Assembly (NCBI GenBank): GCA_045106875.1
Contig: JBGCFK010000343.1
Span: 1 to 42,233, forward strand
Length of the DNA: 42,233 nt
Source of the DNA: Paracoccaceae bacterium
Lineage (GTDB): Bacteria; Pseudomonadota; Alphaproteobacteria; Rhodobacterales; Rhodobacteraceae
Reading direction: 5' to 3'
Shown here: positions 7,949 to 42,233 of the stretch, piece after piece
Position numbering within the stretch: position 1 is the first letter of the stretch
Layout of the letters: each line of letters starts with the position of its first letter
Program-made: the position numbers and the translations under genes
Notes under the pieces: model-generated
What the model saw: the letters and a program-made list of their open reading frames with translations, nothing else
Database searches by the model: none
What the model was told of the DNA's origin: nothing

Positions 7949-9955
7949 TTAGTTTGTACTCTCGGTGATTTTTCCTCTGCGCCATGCGAACGCGATTGGC
8001 AGTGCCGACACCGCGAACCCCGCGATTGTCAACCCGATCTGGTCCAGTCCCAGAACGCCTCCGATGGGGGCCGCGACCATCACGCCGCCTGCCAGCAGCA
8101 TCAGACGCATGATCGCCGACAGGCCGCCGGATCCAAGCGAGCCCACGAAACTGACAAAGCCCTGCATGGCGGCCGAGATGAACCAGACGCCGATCATGGC
8201 GCAGGCAAGAACAAGCATGACCTCGCCTGCGGGCGCCTCGCCGATCAAAGCCGGGTTGAGCACAAAGAAGAACGGTGCGACATAGATGATACCACCGAGA
8301 CGCATCGCCTCCAGCCCCGTCTGCATGGCATTTGCGCCCGCCATGGTGGCCGCCGCGAACGCGCCCAGTGCGACGGGCGGGGTGATGTAGCTGACCATGC
8401 CCCAGTAGAGAATGAACAGATGCACCGCCAACTCGTTCAGCCCCGCCTGCACCAGCGCAGGCGCAAGCACCACGGCAAGGAAGATGTAGCATGCCGGGAC
8501 TGTCATCCCCATCCCGAAGATGAACGAGGTCAGCGCACCCATGATCAGCAGCATGGCGACTGAGTCCCCCGCCAGATGGATCAGCTCGGTCGCAAGCGGC
8601 CCGGTCAGTCCCGTCGCCTGGAGGGCGCCCACGATCATGCCAATGCCCAGCGGCACTGCCACCAGTACGGCCAAGGTGCGCCCCACCAACCCGATCATAC
8701 TCAGGAAACTGTCCAGCGTGAACCGGTGCGATTTCATCACCTGATTGACCACCAGCAGGATGACGATGGCAATGAAGGGCGCTGTCGTCTCCCAGCGATA
8801 GGCGACCATCAGATAGATCAGCACGGCGAAGACCGAGATATAGATCCACCCGGATTTAAGTGTTGCAATCAGGCGGGGCAGCATCTCGGCTGGCATGCCC
8901 TTCAGGCCGCGGCGCGCCGAATACGCGTCGATCTGGGCGAACAGGCCAAAATAGTAGAGGATTGACGGCACGGCAGCTGCCAGCATGATCTCGACATATG
9001 GTCGGCTCAACCATGAGGCCATGACGAAGGCGGTTGCCCCCATGATGGGCGGCATCAGGACCCCGCCAGTGGAAGCGCACGCCTCGGTCGCGGCGGCATA
9101 GCGGGACGAGAATCCGGTCTTCTTCATGGCTGGGATCGACACCGCGCCAGTTGTCAGCACATTCGAGATCACCGACCCGGACATGGATCCCATGAAGCCG
9201 GAGGCAAAGATTGCGACCTTGGCGGCTCCGCCCCTGTACCGGCCGACAAGGGATAGCGCGAGATCGTTGAAGAACTGGCCTCCGCCGGTGAATTGCAGGA
9301 TCGCGCCGAACAGGATGAAGCCAATCACGAGGTTTCCAAAGGCCCGCATGGGGATGCCGAAGGACGCCTCGGACGAGATCATGAAGAACGGGATCACATC
9401 GCGGAAGGGTTGCTGGAACCCGGAAAGCGGGTCGGGCACATGGCTGGCAAACGTGGGATAGAGCGAGAACACCAGCACGATCCCGAACAATACCAGTCCA
9501 CCTGCGCGCCGGGTGCCCTCAAGAATCAGGGCATAGAGCGCAATGGATAGCCAGATCGCGTGTTCGGGCGCGGCGTACTCCCAGCCATTGTCGAGGCTTT
9601 CCGAGGAGGTCAGCATGAAGAACCCGGCGACACCGACTGTGATTGCTGCCAGCAGCCAGTCATACCAGGGCACGCGGGGTGCCTTGCTGCCGTCGATACG
9701 AAAACAGAGAAATGTCAGCGCCAGGAAGATGCCTGCGAGGATGTAGAGATACATGCCCTCCAGCATCGCGTACCCGCCAAGACGCAGGTTGAAGAGCTGG
9801 TTCACCGCCAGCGCGATTGCGGCCAGTGTGCCTGATATGATGGCCCACCGGGCAGGGCCGCTGAAGCGCGCGCGCTCGGCAGCCCGTTCGGCCTCGATTG
9901 CTTCGGCACCGCGATCGCGGCCGGTCTCTGCGGAGGGCGTCTCATTAGAAGACAT
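7949..9955 (-). CDS. TRAP transporter 4TM/12TM fused permease (TAXI-type)
   Basis: GGAAKVAIFASGFMGSMSGS, EACASTGGVLMPPIMGATAF, GMGMT and ITPPVAL motifs. Start moved to ATG 9955, which follows a GGAGGAGG RBS. Confidence 0.9.
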   Translation of the reverse strand: MSSNETPSAETGRDRGAEAIEAERAAERARFSGPARWAIISGTLAAIALAVNQLFNLRLGGYAMLEGMYLYILAGIFLALTFLCFRIDGSKAPRVPWYDWLLAAITVGVAGFFMLTSSESLDNGWEYAAPEHAIWLSIALYALILEGTRRAGGLVLFGIVLVFSLYPTFASHVPDPLSGFQQPFRDVIPFFMISSEASFGIPMRAFGNLVIGFILFGAILQFTGGGQFFNDLALSLVGRYRGGAAKVAIFASGFMGSMSGSVISNVLTTGAVSIPAMKKTGFSSRYAAATEACASTGGVLMPPIMGATAFVMASWLSRPYVEIMLAAAVPSILYYFGLFAQIDAYSARRGLKGMPAEMLPRLIATLKSGWIYISVFAVLIYLMVAYRWETTAPFIAIVILLVVNQVMKSHRFTLDSFLSMIGLVGRTLAVLVAVPLGIGMIVGALQATGLTGPLATELIHLAGDSVAMLLIMGALTSFIFGMGMTVPACYIFLAVVLAPALVQAGLNELAVHLFILYWGMVSYITPPVALGAFAAATMAGANAMQTGLEAMRLGGIIYVAPFFFVLNPALIGEAPAGEVMLVLACAMIGVWFISAAMQGFVSFVGSLGSGGLSAIMRLMLLAGGVMVAAPIGGVLGLDQIGLTIAGFAVSALPIAFAWRRGKITESTN

Positions 9956-10045
9956 TACGCCTCCTCCCCTGTTCTGTTTTGCCCGAGCGTGACCCATCAG
10001 GGCTCGCCGCGCAACCACAGGGGTGATGGCCTTGGGTGGTGGCTT

Positions 10046-11023
10046 CTAGAGCTTCAGCAGAATCTTTCCCGCATGACCACCTGCTTCCATGTAAGCGTGG
10101 GCCTGCGCCGCGTCCTCGAAATCGAAGATTTTGTGCGTGACAGTCTGTAGCTTGCCCTGCGGGAACAGTGGCCAGACCTGCGCGCGCAATTCGGAAGCCA
10201 CTGCCGCCTTGAATTCGGGCGGGCGCGGGCGCAGGGTCGCCCCCGTCAGTTTGAGGCGTTTCAGCATTATCGGCATCAGGTTGACCTCGGTCTTTGCCCC
10301 AAGATCAAAGGCAAGAAAGATCACGCGAGCGTCCTGATTGCAGGTCTTGAAATTTCGTTGCACATATTCGCCGCCCATGAAATCCACGACGATATCTGCG
10401 CCGCCGGCCTCGCTGACGATCTCGACGAAATCTTCCTCACGATAGTTGATGACCCGCTCGGCTCCCATCTTTGCGGCCAGGCCGCGGGAGGCGTCCGAGC
10501 CCGCCGTGGTGAACACGCGCAGTCCCATCGCGGTGCCCAGTTGCACAGCGGTCGAGCCGATCCCGCCGCCACCGCCATGCACCAGCAGGGTCTGTCCGGC
10601 AGGCACATCATGCCCGTGCCAGACATTGGACCACACGGTGAAGAACGTCTCGCAGAGACCTGCCGCGTCGATCAGATCCACACCGTCCGGGATTGGCAGA
10701 CATTGCGCGGCGGGCACGGCCACGTATTCGGCATATGAGCCACCATTGGTCAGCGCACAGAGATGGTCTCCGACAGCCCACCCGGTCACACCGTCGCCAA
10801 GGGCCACGATCTCACCAGACATTTCAAGCCCCATGTAGGGAGAGGCCCCCTTTGGCGGAGGATACCCTCCGGCGCGCTGCTTCAGGTCTGGTCCGTTCAC
10901 ACCCGCGGCGGCAACCCTGACCAGAAGCTGGCCCGGGCCGGGCTCTGGAATGGCAGTCGTGCCGACGCTCAATACGTCCGGCGCACCGCCCGCACCATGT
11001 TCGATCACCCGCATTTCGGCCAT
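10046..11023 (-). CDS. NAD(P)H-quinone oxidoreductase (MDR, PIG3 family)
   Basis: AAGVNGPDLKQRAGGYPPPKGASPYMGLEMSG, ETFFTVWSN, HGGGGGIG and GKILL motifs. Start at ATG 11023 after AGGAG; the track's longer N-terminus is antisense to sbtA. Confidence 0.9.
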   Translation of the reverse strand: MAEMRVIEHGAGGAPDVLSVGTTAIPEPGPGQLLVRVAAAGVNGPDLKQRAGGYPPPKGASPYMGLEMSGEIVALGDGVTGWAVGDHLCALTNGGSYAEYVAVPAAQCLPIPDGVDLIDAAGLCETFFTVWSNVWHGHDVPAGQTLLVHGGGGGIGSTAVQLGTAMGLRVFTTAGSDASRGLAAKMGAERVINYREEDFVEIVSEAGGADIVVDFMGGEYVQRNFKTCNQDARVIFLAFDLGAKTEVNLMPIMLKRLKLTGATLRPRPPEFKAAVASELRAQVWPLFPQGKLQTVTHKIFDFEDAAQAHAYMEAGGHAGKILLKL

Positions 11024-11146
11024 GCCTGTTCTCCTCTGCTGATGGTGTGGGTCTAAGGTGGCCGGCCGTGTCGTGCAATCCTGCTGATGTTGCATGCTTT
11101 CATACAGCGAAGGGCGTGTTATTGAACTACCAACAAGGAGTGGTTC

Positions 11147-12133
11147 ATGGACGATATGCTGGCGCTTGCACAGGCGAACTTGACCTCGCCTATGGTGCTT
11201 TTCTTCGCGCTGGGCTTCGTGGCTGCCATGGCGCGCTCGGATCTCAGCTTTCCTGAAGCTGCGGCCAAGACGCTTTCGCTTTATTTGCTGTTTGCCATCG
11301 GCTTCAAGGGCGGCGCAGGCGTTGCCGAGCACGGTATAGACCTGACGCTGGGTTTGACGCTGTTTGCAGGCACGATCCTTTCGGCCATCATCCCGTTGAT
11401 TGCGTTCTACGCGCTGCGGGTGATCTCGGGTCTGAGCCTTGTCGATGCGGCGGCCGTGGCAGCGCACTATGGGTCGATATCCATTGTAACCTTTGTCGCT
11501 GCAACATCGGCCCTGACGGACCGTGGCATCGCCTATGAAGGCTACATGGTTGCCGTCGCGGCGCTTATGGAGACCCCCGCAATTCTCGTGGCGCTCTGGC
11601 TTGCACGCTCGGCTATCGCCGAACGCCCCGGCAGCGGCCAGGACGGTGGCTTGATGCGCGAGATCATGTTGAACGGGTCGATCGTGATGCTGACCGGCGC
11701 GTTCATCATTGGCTGGATCACAGGTGCCGAGGGGTTGGACGAAGTGTCCGGCCTGATCATTGACCCGTTCAAGGGTGTCCTTTGTCTGTTCCTGCTGGAT
11801 ATGGGGCTGGTGGCAGGACGCGGCATGCGGACGGGCGCGCGCCATCTCTCTGCACCGGTGATCATGTTTGGGCTGCTGATGCCGCTGTTGGGCTCGGTGA
11901 TGGGTGGGGTGACCGGAGCCATGATCGGCCTCAGCCCAGGCGGGATCGCGCTGCTCGCAACCCTTTCTGCTTCTGCGTCCTATATTGCTGTACCTGCGGC
12001 GATGCGTGTGGCCTTGCCGGAGGCGAACCCCTCCATCTACCTGACCCTGTCGCTGGGCGTCACCTTCCCGTTCAACCTGACTGTCGGAATCCCGCTATAC
12101 ATCGCGATGGCGCAAACCCTTGGGGGAAGCTGA
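11147..12133 (+). CDS. sbtA: SbtA-family (DUF897) sodium-dependent bicarbonate transporter
   Basis: SLYLLFAIGFKGG, AAHYGSISIVTF, SASYIAVPAA and LGVTFPFNLTVGIPLY motifs; about 10 hydrophobic segments; AAGGAG RBS. Confidence 0.88.
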   Translation: MDDMLALAQANLTSPMVLFFALGFVAAMARSDLSFPEAAAKTLSLYLLFAIGFKGGAGVAEHGIDLTLGLTLFAGTILSAIIPLIAFYALRVISGLSLVDAAAVAAHYGSISIVTFVAATSALTDRGIAYEGYMVAVAALMETPAILVALWLARSAIAERPGSGQDGGLMREIMLNGSIVMLTGAFIIGWITGAEGLDEVSGLIIDPFKGVLCLFLLDMGLVAGRGMRTGARHLSAPVIMFGLLMPLLGSVMGGVTGAMIGLSPGGIALLATLSASASYIAVPAAMRVALPEANPSIYLTLSLGVTFPFNLTVGIPLYIAMAQTLGGS

Positions 12134-12137
12134 GATC

Positions 12138-12452
12138 ATGCAGACCTATGCCAAGAAACGTGTCGAGATCATTGTCGAGGCCCCGGCACTACGCCGTGTA
12201 CTGGCATTCCTGGATGACAACGATGTGTCGGGCTATACGGTTGTACCGGCGTTGGCGGGCCGCGGTGACAGTGGCCGGTCCTGGTCGCGCGAGGGTCAGA
12301 TCACTGACACGGACAGGATGGTGACTGTGGTGATGATAATCGATGCGTCCCGGCTGGAGCCGGTTTTCGATGCGCTCTATGGTTTGGTGAGCCGACAGAT
12401 CGGCGTGATTTCGGTCAGCGATTGCGAAGTCGTCCGGGATGCCCGGTTCTAA
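12138..12452 (+). CDS. sbtB: SbtB-like PII-superfamily regulator
   Basis: 104 aa; KRVEIIVE, SGYTVVPALAGRG and SDCEVVRDARF; starts 4 bp after the sbtA stop. Confidence 0.8.
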   Translation: MQTYAKKRVEIIVEAPALRRVLAFLDDNDVSGYTVVPALAGRGDSGRSWSREGQITDTDRMVTVVMIIDASRLEPVFDALYGLVSRQIGVISVSDCEVVRDARF

Positions 12453-38743: not shown

Positions 38744-40165
38744 ATGCTGAGCCGGTTTGCCTATGTGCTCATAATTCTCGGGGTCATCCTTGCGGGTGCC
38801 TTCGGATTGGATTTCCTGTTGAAACAGGAAGGATCACTTGTACTGACGATCGGCGGGACCACCTGGCCGTTGACGTTGTTCGAAGCTGCTATCGGGCTCA
38901 CGATCGGGGTGCTTGGCATTTTGCTGGCCATTCTTGCGGTCAAGCTGCTTCTTGCCTTGTTCCTTTTCATAGTCGGCCGAAAGGACGCGTTTGGAACGTT
39001 CTTCACCCGCCGCCGCGAGCGGTCGGGGCTGGACGCCCTGTCCAAGAGCATGGTCGCGCTGGCGTCCGGGAATGCGCCTTTGGCCAAGAAGAAAGCCGCA
39101 TTGGCTGAACGCAAACTGATGCGCCCGGAGTTGACGCGGCTGATTAACGCTCAGGCTGCGGAATTGTCCGGAGACGATGCCAAAGCCGAAACATACTATA
39201 AAGCCCTGATGGCGGACGATTCGACAGCCTATGTCGGTGCACATGGACTTATCGGCAAGGCGATGGACGCCGGCGACACTGATCGGGCGCTGAAACTTGC
39301 CGAGTTTGCGCGCGAGATTGCACCCAAGGACGAGACGACTTTGGAGACGCTGTATACCCTGCAGAGCCAAAAGTTCGACTGGGAAGCCGCGCGTAAAACG
39401 CTGACGGATCAGCGCCGTGCCAAGCATGTGCCCAAGCTGGAGGCGTCACGCCGCGAAGCTGCTTTGATACTCGCACAGGCCGAGGATGCCGAGCGTGTCG
39501 GTGAAGACGAACATGCCCGTGCCTTGGCGGTCGAAGCTGCGAAGATGGATCTGACAAATGTGAACGCAGTGTCTGCGGCCGTGCGTCATCTGGTGGCTTC
39601 CGGCTCGAAGCGGGCTGCAAGCAAACTTGTCACGGATTCGTGGCGGTCGGGACCACACCCGGTTCTGGCAGCGGCATTTGCCTCGATCGAGCCGGACGAG
39701 TCTCCGGCTCAGCGCCAGCGTCGTTTCCAAGCCCTGTTCAATCTGCACCCTGAGGATGATGAGACACGGTTTGTGCGGGCGGAACTTGCCCTGGTCGCGG
39801 AAGACTTCAAGGGTGCGCGCGCTGCGATTCAGGATTTGCGCGAGACCGACCCCTCGGTGCGCAGTTGTGCGATCATGGCTGCGGTCTCTCGCGGTGAGGG
39901 AGAACCAGATTACGTAGTGCGCGGCTGGCTTGCACGGGCGTTGGGTGCTCCGAAGGGCAATGCGACTGAAGGCATCATTGACCACGCGGCAATGCTGCCT
40001 TTGTTGATTGGCGCGCCGGACGAAATCGCAGACGAACAAAGCCGCGACCTGCCGGGCGGGTTGGCTGAGAATGGACCTAAAGGTGATGGTCCGATCGACG
40101 CTGAAGATGCTGAACCCGTGACGGGCGACACCGAGGCAAAGCCTCGCTCCGAGGCGGCAGCGTAA
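38744..40165 (+). CDS. hemY: HemY-like membrane TPR protein
   Basis: Two N-terminal TM helices, GLDALSKSMVALASG, TPR-like helices, PHPVLA and VRGWLARALGAP; AAGGAG RBS. Confidence 0.85.
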   Translation: MLSRFAYVLIILGVILAGAFGLDFLLKQEGSLVLTIGGTTWPLTLFEAAIGLTIGVLGILLAILAVKLLLALFLFIVGRKDAFGTFFTRRRERSGLDALSKSMVALASGNAPLAKKKAALAERKLMRPELTRLINAQAAELSGDDAKAETYYKALMADDSTAYVGAHGLIGKAMDAGDTDRALKLAEFAREIAPKDETTLETLYTLQSQKFDWEAARKTLTDQRRAKHVPKLEASRREAALILAQAEDAERVGEDEHARALAVEAAKMDLTNVNAVSAAVRHLVASGSKRAASKLVTDSWRSGPHPVLAAAFASIEPDESPAQRQRRFQALFNLHPEDDETRFVRAELALVAEDFKGARAAIQDLRETDPSVRSCAIMAAVSRGEGEPDYVVRGWLARALGAPKGNATEGIIDHAAMLPLLIGAPDEIADEQSRDLPGGLAENGPKGDGPIDAEDAEPVTGDTEAKPRSEAAA

Positions 40166-40253: not shown

Positions 40254-40282
40254 GGAAAGAAGACGCCCAGGTGGTTCTGGGC
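40254..40282 (-). terminator. Possible intrinsic terminator after the recombinase stop
   Basis: Minus strand GCCCAG-AACCAC-CTGGGC-GTCTTCTTTCC, starting 4 bp after the TGA at 40287-40289. Confidence 0.4.
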
Positions 40283-40286
40283 ATGA

Positions 40287-41924
40287 TCATGCATGGGGCA
40301 GGCCGCTGTAGCTCAGCTGGTAGAGCACGTCATTCGTAATGATGGGGTCGGAGGTTCGAGTCCTCTCAGCGGCACCACTTCTCACATCCTGCCCTGAGAG
40401 TTCCCCTAAAGCCTTGAAGGGTAACGCTATTTTGGCGGTTCTAGCACCCTCAATTCGGTGGTAGTGGAGACGGTCTGCGAAGGCCAGTTTTAGGACCAGT
40501 CGGCGGAGGGTGATATGACCACTTTCCCAGAGTTTCCAAGGGTTTGCGAGGAAAGTGAGGACTGGTTCTAGTTTTTCCTCGAAAGAGCCCTTGGGTTCGG
40601 CATGTTTGGTAAGTTGTTCGGCTGCGAGCGCCTTGCCGCGCTCAAGTTCGCCGATCTTGGTCTCGTAGGTTGCGATGATCGAGGCATTTGTTGTGCCGAG
40701 GATTCGGGCTAGCAGCGTGTCTATCTGCTTCTCGATATCCTTGATCTGATGCTTGCCCGCTTGGATAGCTTCAAGCGCCTGACCGCGGCGGGCATCCCAG
40801 GCAAAACGGAACATGGCTGTTGCCAGATCAAAGAGACCCTGGGTCGGCTGCAGCTGCTTGATGATCTCGCCGACCTCACCCTCGATCTTATCGCGCGGGA
40901 TAGATTTCCCGTAGCTCTCGCAGGTCTTGGTCTGGCAGAGATAGTAGGCATAGTGCCTGTCGCGTCCCTTCGCCCAGGAGGAACGAAACGGCACGCCGCA
41001 ATCAGCGCAGCAGGCAAAACCGCGCAGCGCGAAATCATTGCCGATGTTCTTGCGCGTCGGGGCTTTGGTCGTGCCCTTGCGGCGCTGTTGGACTTTCTCA
41101 AATGTCTCAAGTGTGATCAGCGGCTCGTGCTGGCCTTTCAACCAGTGCAGCCGATAGTTTTCTGAGCAGATGTATCCGGCGTAAAGCGGTTGGGTCAGAA
41201 TGTCAGTGACCCGCTGCTGGGTGATGACGCCCTTCCTGTTACGCGGGAACTCTGGAAAGCTCTCAAAGTAGCGCTTGATTTCAGCCTGACTTTGGAACCG
41301 TCCGAGGGCGTATCCCTCGAACGCCTCAATGACAATCCGATCAAGGGGCGGGTTCGGAACCAACACCTTCCCCCGGCCTTTGATGGTGATGTATTTGAGG
41401 CCCACGGGCGCGTCGTGGATCCAGTACCCGTTCTGCATCCTGGCCCGCATCTTCTGAGCCACCTGGCGTCCATTCTGTTTGCGTTCCAGCGCACCTTGGG
41501 CCGCCATGATCGTCTCTATAAATTCATCTTCAGGCGTCTCGCCGAGTTTGAAGTTCAGGCATTCCACCTGGACATTCCGATCCCGGAACGCATCGCGCAG
41601 ATCCAGGAAGGCCCGCGTGTCACGGCTCGCGCGCTTGAGGTCATCGAAGATCACAACGAAGCGTTCGCCGGGTTGCGCGTCGATAAAGCTGAGCAAAGCC
41701 AGCATGCCCGGACGTTGCATGAAGTCACCGCCCCCGGTGATGATATCCGGAAAGACGGATGCGACTTCGTAGCCCCGTGCCGTCGCATGCTCTCGGCACC
41801 GGGTTTCTTGCGAGGCGAGGCCATGGCCTTCCTCATCTTGGGATCTCGATGAGATCCGGCAATAGATGAGCGCTTTGATTGCCGTCTCACCTCTAATGCG
41901 TTCCGTATTGGTTCGAATGACCAT
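40287..41924 (-). CDS. Large serine recombinase (integrase)
   Basis: IYCRISS catalytic Ser motif, RPGM and DDLKRASR; recombinase domain (APVGLKY, ILTQPLYAG, HEPLITLETF); zinc ribbon (CADC...CQTKTC) and coiled coil; AAAGGA RBS. Confidence 0.93.
   Translation of the reverse strand: MVIRTNTERIRGETAIKALIYCRISSRSQDEEGHGLASQETRCREHATARGYEVASVFPDIITGGGDFMQRPGMLALLSFIDAQPGERFVVIFDDLKRASRDTRAFLDLRDAFRDRNVQVECLNFKLGETPEDEFIETIMAAQGALERKQNGRQVAQKMRARMQNGYWIHDAPVGLKYITIKGRGKVLVPNPPLDRIVIEAFEGYALGRFQSQAEIKRYFESFPEFPRNRKGVITQQRVTDILTQPLYAGYICSENYRLHWLKGQHEPLITLETFEKVQQRRKGTTKAPTRKNIGNDFALRGFACCADCGVPFRSSWAKGRDRHYAYYLCQTKTCESYGKSIPRDKIEGEVGEIIKQLQPTQGLFDLATAMFRFAWDARRGQALEAIQAGKHQIKDIEKQIDTLLARILGTTNASIIATYETKIGELERGKALAAEQLTKHAEPKGSFEEKLEPVLTFLANPWKLWESGHITLRRLVLKLAFADRLHYHRIEGARTAKIALPFKALGELSGQDVRSGAAERTRTSDPIITNDVLYQLSYSGLPHA
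40302..40377 (+). tRNA. tRNA-Thr(CGT)
   Basis: 76-nt cloverleaf: acceptor GCCGCTG/CAGCGGC, D arm GCTC/GAGC, anticodon loop TT-CGT-AA (CGT at 40335-40337), T loop TTCGAGT, encoded CCA. Confidence 0.97.
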
Positions 41925-42233
41925 TTCAAATTCCTTTCGTTTCTAAGAATTTCATTACTCAGGCTGCATCCTCGGTTCCGTCATCGTGCGGGACTTGGCG
42001 GCGGCTGTCCTGGCTGGAGCTTATCTGCGAGTTTAGCACAGCGGCGCGCAGCGCTGCCGTCAGGTCGATATTCTGTCCACAGCTTTCTTTGTCGCCGCCG
42101 ATAGCACTGCCCTCGCTCACCTCACAGCCGAGATCAACAAAACTCATGACGATGGTCCAGAGGGTCTCGATCAATTCGCGCTTCTCCGCCTCAGAGGCAC
42201 CGGAGGCGGCGACGTAAGGCAACCAATCCCGCC
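40378..42233. mobile_element. Left end of an integrative element inserted at tRNA-Thr(CGT), partial
   Basis: The serine integrase abuts and overlaps the tRNA, and core gene order stops there. The second att site is not in the window. Confidence 0.75.
41959..42233 (-). CDS. Small hypothetical protein upstream of the integrase, 5' partial
   Basis: Frame is open to the window edge (...RDWLPYVAASGASEAEKRELIETLWTIVMSFVDLG...); ends 34 bp before the integrase ATG, same strand. Confidence 0.7.
   Translation of the reverse strand, partial: RDWLPYVAASGASEAEKRELIETLWTIVMSFVDLGCEVSEGSAIGGDKESCGQNIDLTAALRAAVLNSQISSSQDSRRQVPHDDGTEDAA

Follow-up and report, generated by a model that had tools for sequence, protein, structure and literature searches.

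We consider it probable that the 42,233-nucleotide stretch of Paracoccaceae DNA analyzed here (the window, which is the complete contig C272 of the 574-contig source assembly, G000) carries the left end of an island, likely mobilizable, that entered a tRNA-Thr gene and has a large serine integrase at this end, that the reading frame of this integrase crosses the insertion point, and that excision of the island would rejoin the frame to a conserved helical tail of 35-70 residues and link it to mobC and relaxase genes. The evidence comes from the window locus itself, from homologous loci in which the far end of the element could be located, and from natural fusions in which integrase and tail are already joined.

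The integrase gene and its tRNA-Thr junction

In its integrated form the integrase occupies 40287..41924 on the minus strand and has 545 residues, with S25 as the serine of the RxS motif. Pfam assigns a Resolvase domain to residues 18-167 (PF00239, E 2e-21), a Recombinase domain to residues 198-284 and a zinc ribbon to residues 300-351, followed by a coiled coil. The catalytic R and S are invariant across the 80 rows of alignment A4, so that the protein carries the RxS signature of large serine recombinases, and the combination of Recombinase domain, zinc ribbon and coiled coil, which is supported by Pfam, the structural model and fold matches, is likewise that of large serine recombinases.

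The sole tRNA gene found by ARAGORN in the window, an intact tRNA-Thr(CGT) at 40302..40377 (+), forms the attB-derived arm of the integration junction. As an earlier note on this sequence had observed, no stop codon precedes the tRNA and the integrase frame runs on through it. Codons 516-541 are the antisense of the tRNA and four further codons come from the host leader; the last 29 residues (G517-A545; 40290..40376 on the minus strand, by ORF reading) make up the antisense-derived tail of the integrated state, as the note had read it. The stop codon (TGA, 40289-40287) indeed lies within a 12-bp palindrome (40281-40292). The terminator-like hairpin reported to follow it is also present, at 40284-40263 on the minus strand, but neither hairpin nor palindrome rises above chance, since the hairpin scan gives four such sites in the window versus 2.1 +/- 1.5 in shuffles and the fold z-score is -1.85. 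The whole palindrome and hairpin region around the stop codon (40263..40292, minus strand) belongs to the host leader, is not conserved in genome G019, and is likely incidental. Further into the host flank, a hemY-like gene (38744..40165, +; Pfam) lies upstream of the tRNA, and hemY precedes tRNA-Thr(CGT) within 1.5 kb in 8 of 16 same-genus loci.

On the element side the contig stops 309 bp beyond the integrase start codon and cuts a small conserved ORF (41959..42231, minus strand), which by its position is a candidate directionality factor. It has a homolog in 23 of 79 loci (window included) and matches no Pfam or NCBIfam family and no named family in the ESM Atlas. Pfam detects no resolvase domain in it, so the window contains no adjacent small serine recombinase of the DsiA kind discussed below. 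At another tRNA-Thr locus (L099, G019:C1) the usual small ORF upstream is replaced by a 138-aa resolvase-like ORF, reminiscent by eye of the companions DsiA and CcrA, which is followed by an IS21-like pair, also assigned by eye.

The homolog set comprised 78 loci with integrases 41-78% identical to the window integrase in the best segment. At 61 of these the integrase gene extends into a complete, oppositely oriented tRNA gene, so the overlap of integrase gene and tRNA end is not due to chance, and the earlier suspicion that tRNA-derived tails are common in this integrase family is borne out. Five of the 78 loci have no C-terminal match; in the remaining 12 the integrase is bounded by the edge of a contig, an incomplete tRNA or a junction of another kind. 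Plasmid and phage collections yielded no close full-length relative of the integrase; 14 homologs were found on viral contigs.

The earlier note had also proposed that the convergent arrangement might act on the integrated integrase. We regard it as barely credible that the antisense-tRNA peptide, the palindrome or hairpin, or the antisense RNA is a selected control of the integrated enzyme, for instance as a degron or by silencing. The convergent layout is real, and in 42 of 62 loci (the window and the 61 homologs) the frame crosses the whole tRNA, but the integrated tails range from 3 to 213 residues and share no common end, the commonest terminal dipeptide occurring in only 3 of 62. Even at tRNA-Thr(CGT) some homologs stop after six residues (L013) while others read through, and the hairpin is at chance level. 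The scatter in length and terminal residues argues that the antisense-tRNA tail is filler; judged from the sequences, reading through an entire tRNA is incidental, and the special role suggested for peptide, palindrome or hairpin finds no support.

In genome G019 this tRNA-Thr is likewise occupied by an integrase, 75% identical, whose stop codon is another one and belongs to an unlike leader. Its element DNA matches the window from immediately after the CCA, which places the crossover at or inside the tRNA end. At two loci in same-genus genomes (L085 and L093, tRNA-Thr(CGT)), short integrase remnants end directly after the CCA, which suggests repeated past occupation of this site. Two other loci (L036 and L040) show an integrase, then about 20-23 nt of tRNA 3' end, then non-tRNA DNA, as would be expected if a later element had inserted at the T-loop and displaced the first.

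Target recognition and the att arms

The targets of the 62 loci span 17 isoacceptors for seven amino acids. In all 62 tRNA arms the hexamer TNGAAC, which belongs to the T-loop, starts 18 nt from the CCA end, and the same hexamer stands at index 23 in 21 of 23 element arms, three loci having given no tail call. The LI integrase binds its motif at positions 11-19 in attB and 16-24 in attP, according to an excerpt of PMC3783163. A short core together with a motif that is offset by 5 bp between attB and attP is found in relatives; the window holds the attB arm only. The recurrence of the T-loop hexamer in the element arm with a 5-bp shift is the attB/attP signature of serine integrases and probably accounts for the many tRNA targets; by this T-loop rule 60-75%-identical enzymes can reach many tRNAs, as in genome G041, which carries five integrase copies at five different tRNAs. 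In the window the hexamer is GTTCGA (40354..40359, +), which is the predicted zinc-domain binding motif of attB on the basis of its index position in the arms and the 5-bp rule.

The distance between integrase and tRNA is nearly constant. Counted from the first base of the PF codons, the tRNA CCA follows at 43 or 44 nt in 60 of 62 loci, and over the three reading frames the registers of the 62 loci are distributed 42:20:0. The 44-nt register, which includes the window, corresponds to one clade in a quick 49-row tree (98% SH-aLRT). The hexanucleotide GCACCA with which the tRNA ends (40372..40377, +) represents the putative att core and crossover site, as indicated by the G019 comparison and the distal cores of relatives. 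When the LI geometry is applied, the crossover dinucleotide would correspond to tRNA positions 71-72. In line with such a crossover, A73 is found in both tRNA-Arg genes with 44-register elements and G73 in five tRNA-Arg genes with 43-register elements as well as in the native G000 gene, the numbers being small for both groups.

The element-side att arm in the window has the fixed length of 44 nt (40378..40421, minus strand, by family comparison) and also codes for residues 502-516. It contains a TTCAA-N4-TTA motif (40418-40407, minus strand) that is fixed at 43/44 nt from the tRNA end and that codon usage across homologs marks as constrained as DNA. The leucine of PFKxL is encoded by TTA in 53 of 57 cases at the motif versus 70 of 2130 elsewhere, and the integrase-side arm is therefore constrained as DNA further out. 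Judged by its consensus, this motif (window 40407-40418) may be IHF-like. In the logo of the integrase-side arm there is no mirror motif and the host-side arm is unconserved; textbook att sites are symmetric. Serine integrases are said to need no host proteins (PMC12286644, excerpt).

Far ends of the element and the rejoined reading frame

In genome G041, three of the five elements (37, 43 and 44 kb) end in the shared arm plus the terminal six bases of their tRNA; the search gave no distal end for elements b and c of this genome, nor for the G019 element, which at tRNA-Thr is interrupted by an IS. Inward from the distal core, 60-69 codons stay open up to the mobC start, where the frame stops, and a relaxase-helicase gene comes next, with tail frame, mobC and relaxase on the same strand. 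Integrase and mobC/relaxase lie together within att-bounded DNA in G041 element d and at L047, a complete example of 8.7 kb; the window contig ends before such genes could be reached. A 20-bp tRNA-Leu repeat in element d was considered as its far end and rejected, as it lies 505 bp beyond the true end. This tRNA-Leu 3' fragment (18-20 bp, L120, G041:C1 ~1672000-1672950) is bracketed by a 147-bp inverted repeat of 80% identity and is probably a remnant of another element. The cargo of element d (L119) includes a 2930-aa ORF with 564-aa and 137-aa neighbours, presumably a locus resembling two-partner secretion or contact-dependent inhibition.

A profile built from five tails found matches in 20 of 401 family genomes. 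A motif filter had served to choose the first three tails and a profile to find those that came later, and tails found by profile are open by construction; since the earlier tails had been picked in these ways, mobC alone served as an independent test. It matched in 60 of the 401 genomes, and of the best 30 loci 20 were new. Seventeen of these 20 have the core and the shifted motif within 450 nt upstream, for which the chance expectation in G000 is 0.0016 per 450 nt, and 15 have a tail.

When the two ends of same-contig pairs were rejoined, the conserved tail came in frame in 24 of 26. Among the first 12 pairs, 10 were in frame and two (L133/L173 and L038) were not, and the comparison of register with tail frame gave a Fisher p of 0.067 for loci that, as kin, are not independent. 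A further 16 pairs were selected prospectively by position; 14 of them gave a tail, two of the pairs sharing one integrase, and in all 14 the tail was in frame and the 6-mer was that of the element's own tRNA (variants TGC in seven, CGC in four and TGG in three, with identity ending at 6 nt in 13). As all 14 have the more frequent register, agreement in frame is weak evidence by itself. In the 44-nt register, seven of eight pairs use the matching shifted tail frame; as read from the sequences, a single frame shift at one end of the element is compensated at its other end.

Both forms of the protein exist in nature. P0123 (574 aa, 65% identical to the window protein) is a natural fusion in which the integrase continues into the tail, and P0125, from the same 90%-identity cluster, ends in antisense tRNA-Leu. 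At L289 a small ORF, the integrase with its tail, mobC and a broken relaxase follow each other in one run, and at L034 the junction joins mismatched registers. A scan of metagenomes for junctions returned 59 + 5 matches, 18 with an integrase upstream, 15 with a tail and 13 in the matching frame, numbers that include duplicates and one internal stop. Two of the 15 junctions join mismatched registers, and because one register dominates, the metagenome junctions show existence and not frame selection. Natural integrase-tail junctions may represent tandem insertions rather than circles. More distant junctions on metagenome contigs (L258-L262 and L308) have a different tail type (SN..W.R) with the same core and motif and are likely a further subfamily.

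The earlier proposal that the 3' end of the integrase gene contains attP, giving two C-termini, therefore holds at the family level in relatives, but for the window element itself the far end is absent from the assembly. In the 574 contigs of G000, blastn of the tRNA region returned no second copy of the tRNA end, tail profiles found no tail (best E 1), the core and motif pattern gave 32 hits, none of them with a tail, and neither mobC nor a relaxase N-terminus was detected. Logan contigs from four runs of low depth contained no attP joint and no extension past the contig end. The direct repeat of the tRNA-Thr 3' end for which the note had proposed a search was not found in the assembly, and a long repeat of this kind does not exist in the family; the core that is shared is 6 bp, and the best long direct repeat upstream among the 62 loci measures 14 bp. 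Neither an empty attB nor an excised circle was observed in the data examined, and an empty-site synteny comparison proved uninformative, as none of 24 relatives had the expected tRNA itself within 1.5 kb upstream of the flanking gene.

The far end of the window element may be unbinned or lost, and with no tail, mobC or relaxase N-terminus in G000 its tail is assigned by kinship only. That the element in this genome is a stranded remnant without a far end, having no switch here even though the family has one, is possible but somewhat unlikely. This would fit the missing genes as well as the G019 element at the same tRNA, IS-interrupted and lacking a far end, but the window ORF is intact, the contig ends shortly past its start, the assembly consists of 574 contigs, and mobile DNA is often unbinned. 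A second, broken element of the same integrase family lies on G000 contig C213 (about 9660-12420), with a coupling-protein gene, a 218-aa-type ORF, a small ORF and, close to where the contig ends, the start of an integrase gene with a frameshift.

The rejoined tail and comparison with known systems

The L, E and W columns of an L-E-x-W amphipathic helix are kept in the tail across both registers and beyond the att arm, and the distal half of the tail is variable. For 12 tails pN/pS is 0.59 in frame, compared with 0.97 and 1.34 in the other frames; a close tail pair gives pN 0.031 / pS 0.356, and two other pairs are less clear (0.084/0.129 and 0.203/0.345). The AlphaFold model of P0123 has a mean pLDDT of 83 and its fold matches solved serine integrases. 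In this model the tail helices (515-545, pLDDT about 62-78) stand behind a low-confidence linker that spans the crossover, the alignment at the tail being shallow, so that the model there rests on three near-identical rows, with 13 separate tail rows misplaced (alignment A2). The tail matches no named family in the ESM Atlas.

The complex predicted for integrase residues 1-500 with their own tail lends weak support to an interaction with a score of 0.52, the best of three controls scoring 0.00. The runs agree in at least 75% of contacts, with a partner pLDDT of 61-62. Among 157 solved pairs 116 attain the pass mark, as do 2 among 215 mismatched ones, and passes at or below 0.60 comprise only 18 of the 157 solved pairs and both of the passing mismatches; furthermore, integrase and tail belong to a single protein in nature, and this may make a pass easier. 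Every known domain of the integrase lies before the crossover, and residues 1-500 stay intact on integration.

These features bear on what the rejoined frame is for. It could be a translational bridge that overlaps the att arm and leads ribosomes to mobC after excision, the peptide being inert, which we judge unlikely. A bridge would account for the stop/start overlap of 4 nt (RTGA) between tail and mobC in 13 of 13 cases in the window's clade, and it agrees with the variable distal half, the location of all known domains before the crossover and the weak complex. However, among the 15 new tails in the other register just 2 have the 4-nt overlap, many tails without it still keep the L-E-x-W helix, this helix is retained in both registers beyond the att arm, and pN/pS in frame is below 1. 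A second alternative, that the tail is a built-in directionality factor which, after circle formation, prevents the element from integrating again and favours excision, appears distinctly improbable. The tail resembles in size and position engineered C-terminal integrase-RDF fusions, which inhibit attP x attB (PMC12286644, excerpt), and the model predicts a flexible linker, but an incoming circle that makes only tailed enzyme could then presumably not integrate, and a separate small conserved ORF lies upstream, where the directionality factor would be expected.

Since the tailed form is the sole one that an incoming circle can produce, we prefer a tail that supports re-integration, which is likely its role. 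The cycle would then proceed as follows. The enzyme targets the CCA end and T-loop common to many tRNAs through a 6-bp core, as family-wide comparison indicates, and at the far end, in relatives and by kinship presumably in the window element too, the tail frame leads into mobC and relaxase genes of the same strand. With the crossover dinucleotide at tRNA 71-72, the element would supply the discriminator base and the CCA. The tail-less integrated enzyme, with all catalytic and DNA-binding domains in place, would excise rarely, and the small upstream ORF would probably provide the directionality factor for excision. On the circle, as the most speculative steps, the tail may fold back on the integrase and favour integration, and read-through into mobC may turn on transfer only after excision.

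It is tempting to extend this scheme, tentatively, to a widespread group of alphaproteobacterial mobilizable islands in which a serine integrase reads the universal CCA end and T-loop and its own regulatory domain is stored at the opposite end, so that one recombination would build an integration-competent enzyme and switch on the transfer operon, and integration would dismantle both. If true, database copies of window-family integrases would be truncated forms. By eye, none of the 120 best database homologs ends in the conserved tail, and mining these integrases as tools would thus clone the integrated form. As the core is just 6 bp, finders of tRNA fragments such as Islander miss these islands.

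Several published systems, described here from excerpts of the cited papers, share parts of this arrangement. Dehalococcoides DsiB (McMurdie et al. 2011, PMC3146451) is a serine recombinase of about 540 aa; the 3' end of its gene invariably overlaps attL at tmRNA and the stop lies only outside the island, and the authors proposed that a fully functional form is perhaps made on the circle only. Compared by description, DsiB and the window integrase are both reverse-strand serine recombinases whose frame overlaps attL and has no stop of its own, and DsiB islands are read as mobilizable elements (PMC3146451), which the islands of the window family are likely to be as well. DsiB differs in its tmRNA target, 20-bp repeat, T-loop insertion point and companion DsiA (PMC3146451), whereas the window family has at least 17 tRNA isoacceptors, a 6-bp core and a defined tail; the excerpted DsiB account describes neither a conserved tail of the excised form nor a mobC link (PMC3146451). 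In the Mx8 integrase, attP lies inside the int coding sequence, and integration creates a new 3' end with altered activity but without inactivation (PMC6070905). This enzyme is listed among the tyrosine integrases (PMC4383910); in contrast to the window integrase, which is of the serine family, it is a phage tyrosine recombinase for which the host supplies the new end, and it has no mobilization operon. The archaeal integrases of SSV1, pTN3 and pT26-2 have the recombination site in the gene and are tyrosine enzymes that are split into inactive halves, and gene-disrupting integrases have been called exclusively archaeal in the same review (PMC8371274). Unlike these suicidal integrases, the window family loses the terminal tail only and its catalytic part is not separated.

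LI/A118, phiC31, Bxb1 and SPbeta show the same domain order, fold, short core and 5-bp motif shift between attB and attP (PMC3783163, together with our fold matches). The best curated-family matches are SCCmec CcrB/CcrC and XisF (E 3e-18 to 4e-21); membership in CcrB/CcrC was rejected at 46-76 bits versus cut-offs of 375-900. In the excerpted Islander paper, targeting of tRNA genes is said not to be known for serine integrases (PMC4383910), the term 'tRNA' is absent from the main text of PMC10083194, and the excerpt of the tycheposon preprint reports large serine recombinases in 27 of 937 elements and gives no att detail. No description of the window integrase family was found in the literature covered, partly as excerpts; the 2020 TIGER paper, outside the scope of this search, may bear on novelty. 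Altogether, four points are new relative to these precedents: a tail that is defined, registers whose frames are compensated, a 5-bp rule for the T-loop motif, and the connection with mobC and relaxase. Control of integrase C-termini by recombination, so far a matter of a tyrosine enzyme from a phage and of archaeal viruses, would thereby reach a large serine family, and the proposal made for DsiB in 2011 would gain sequence substance.
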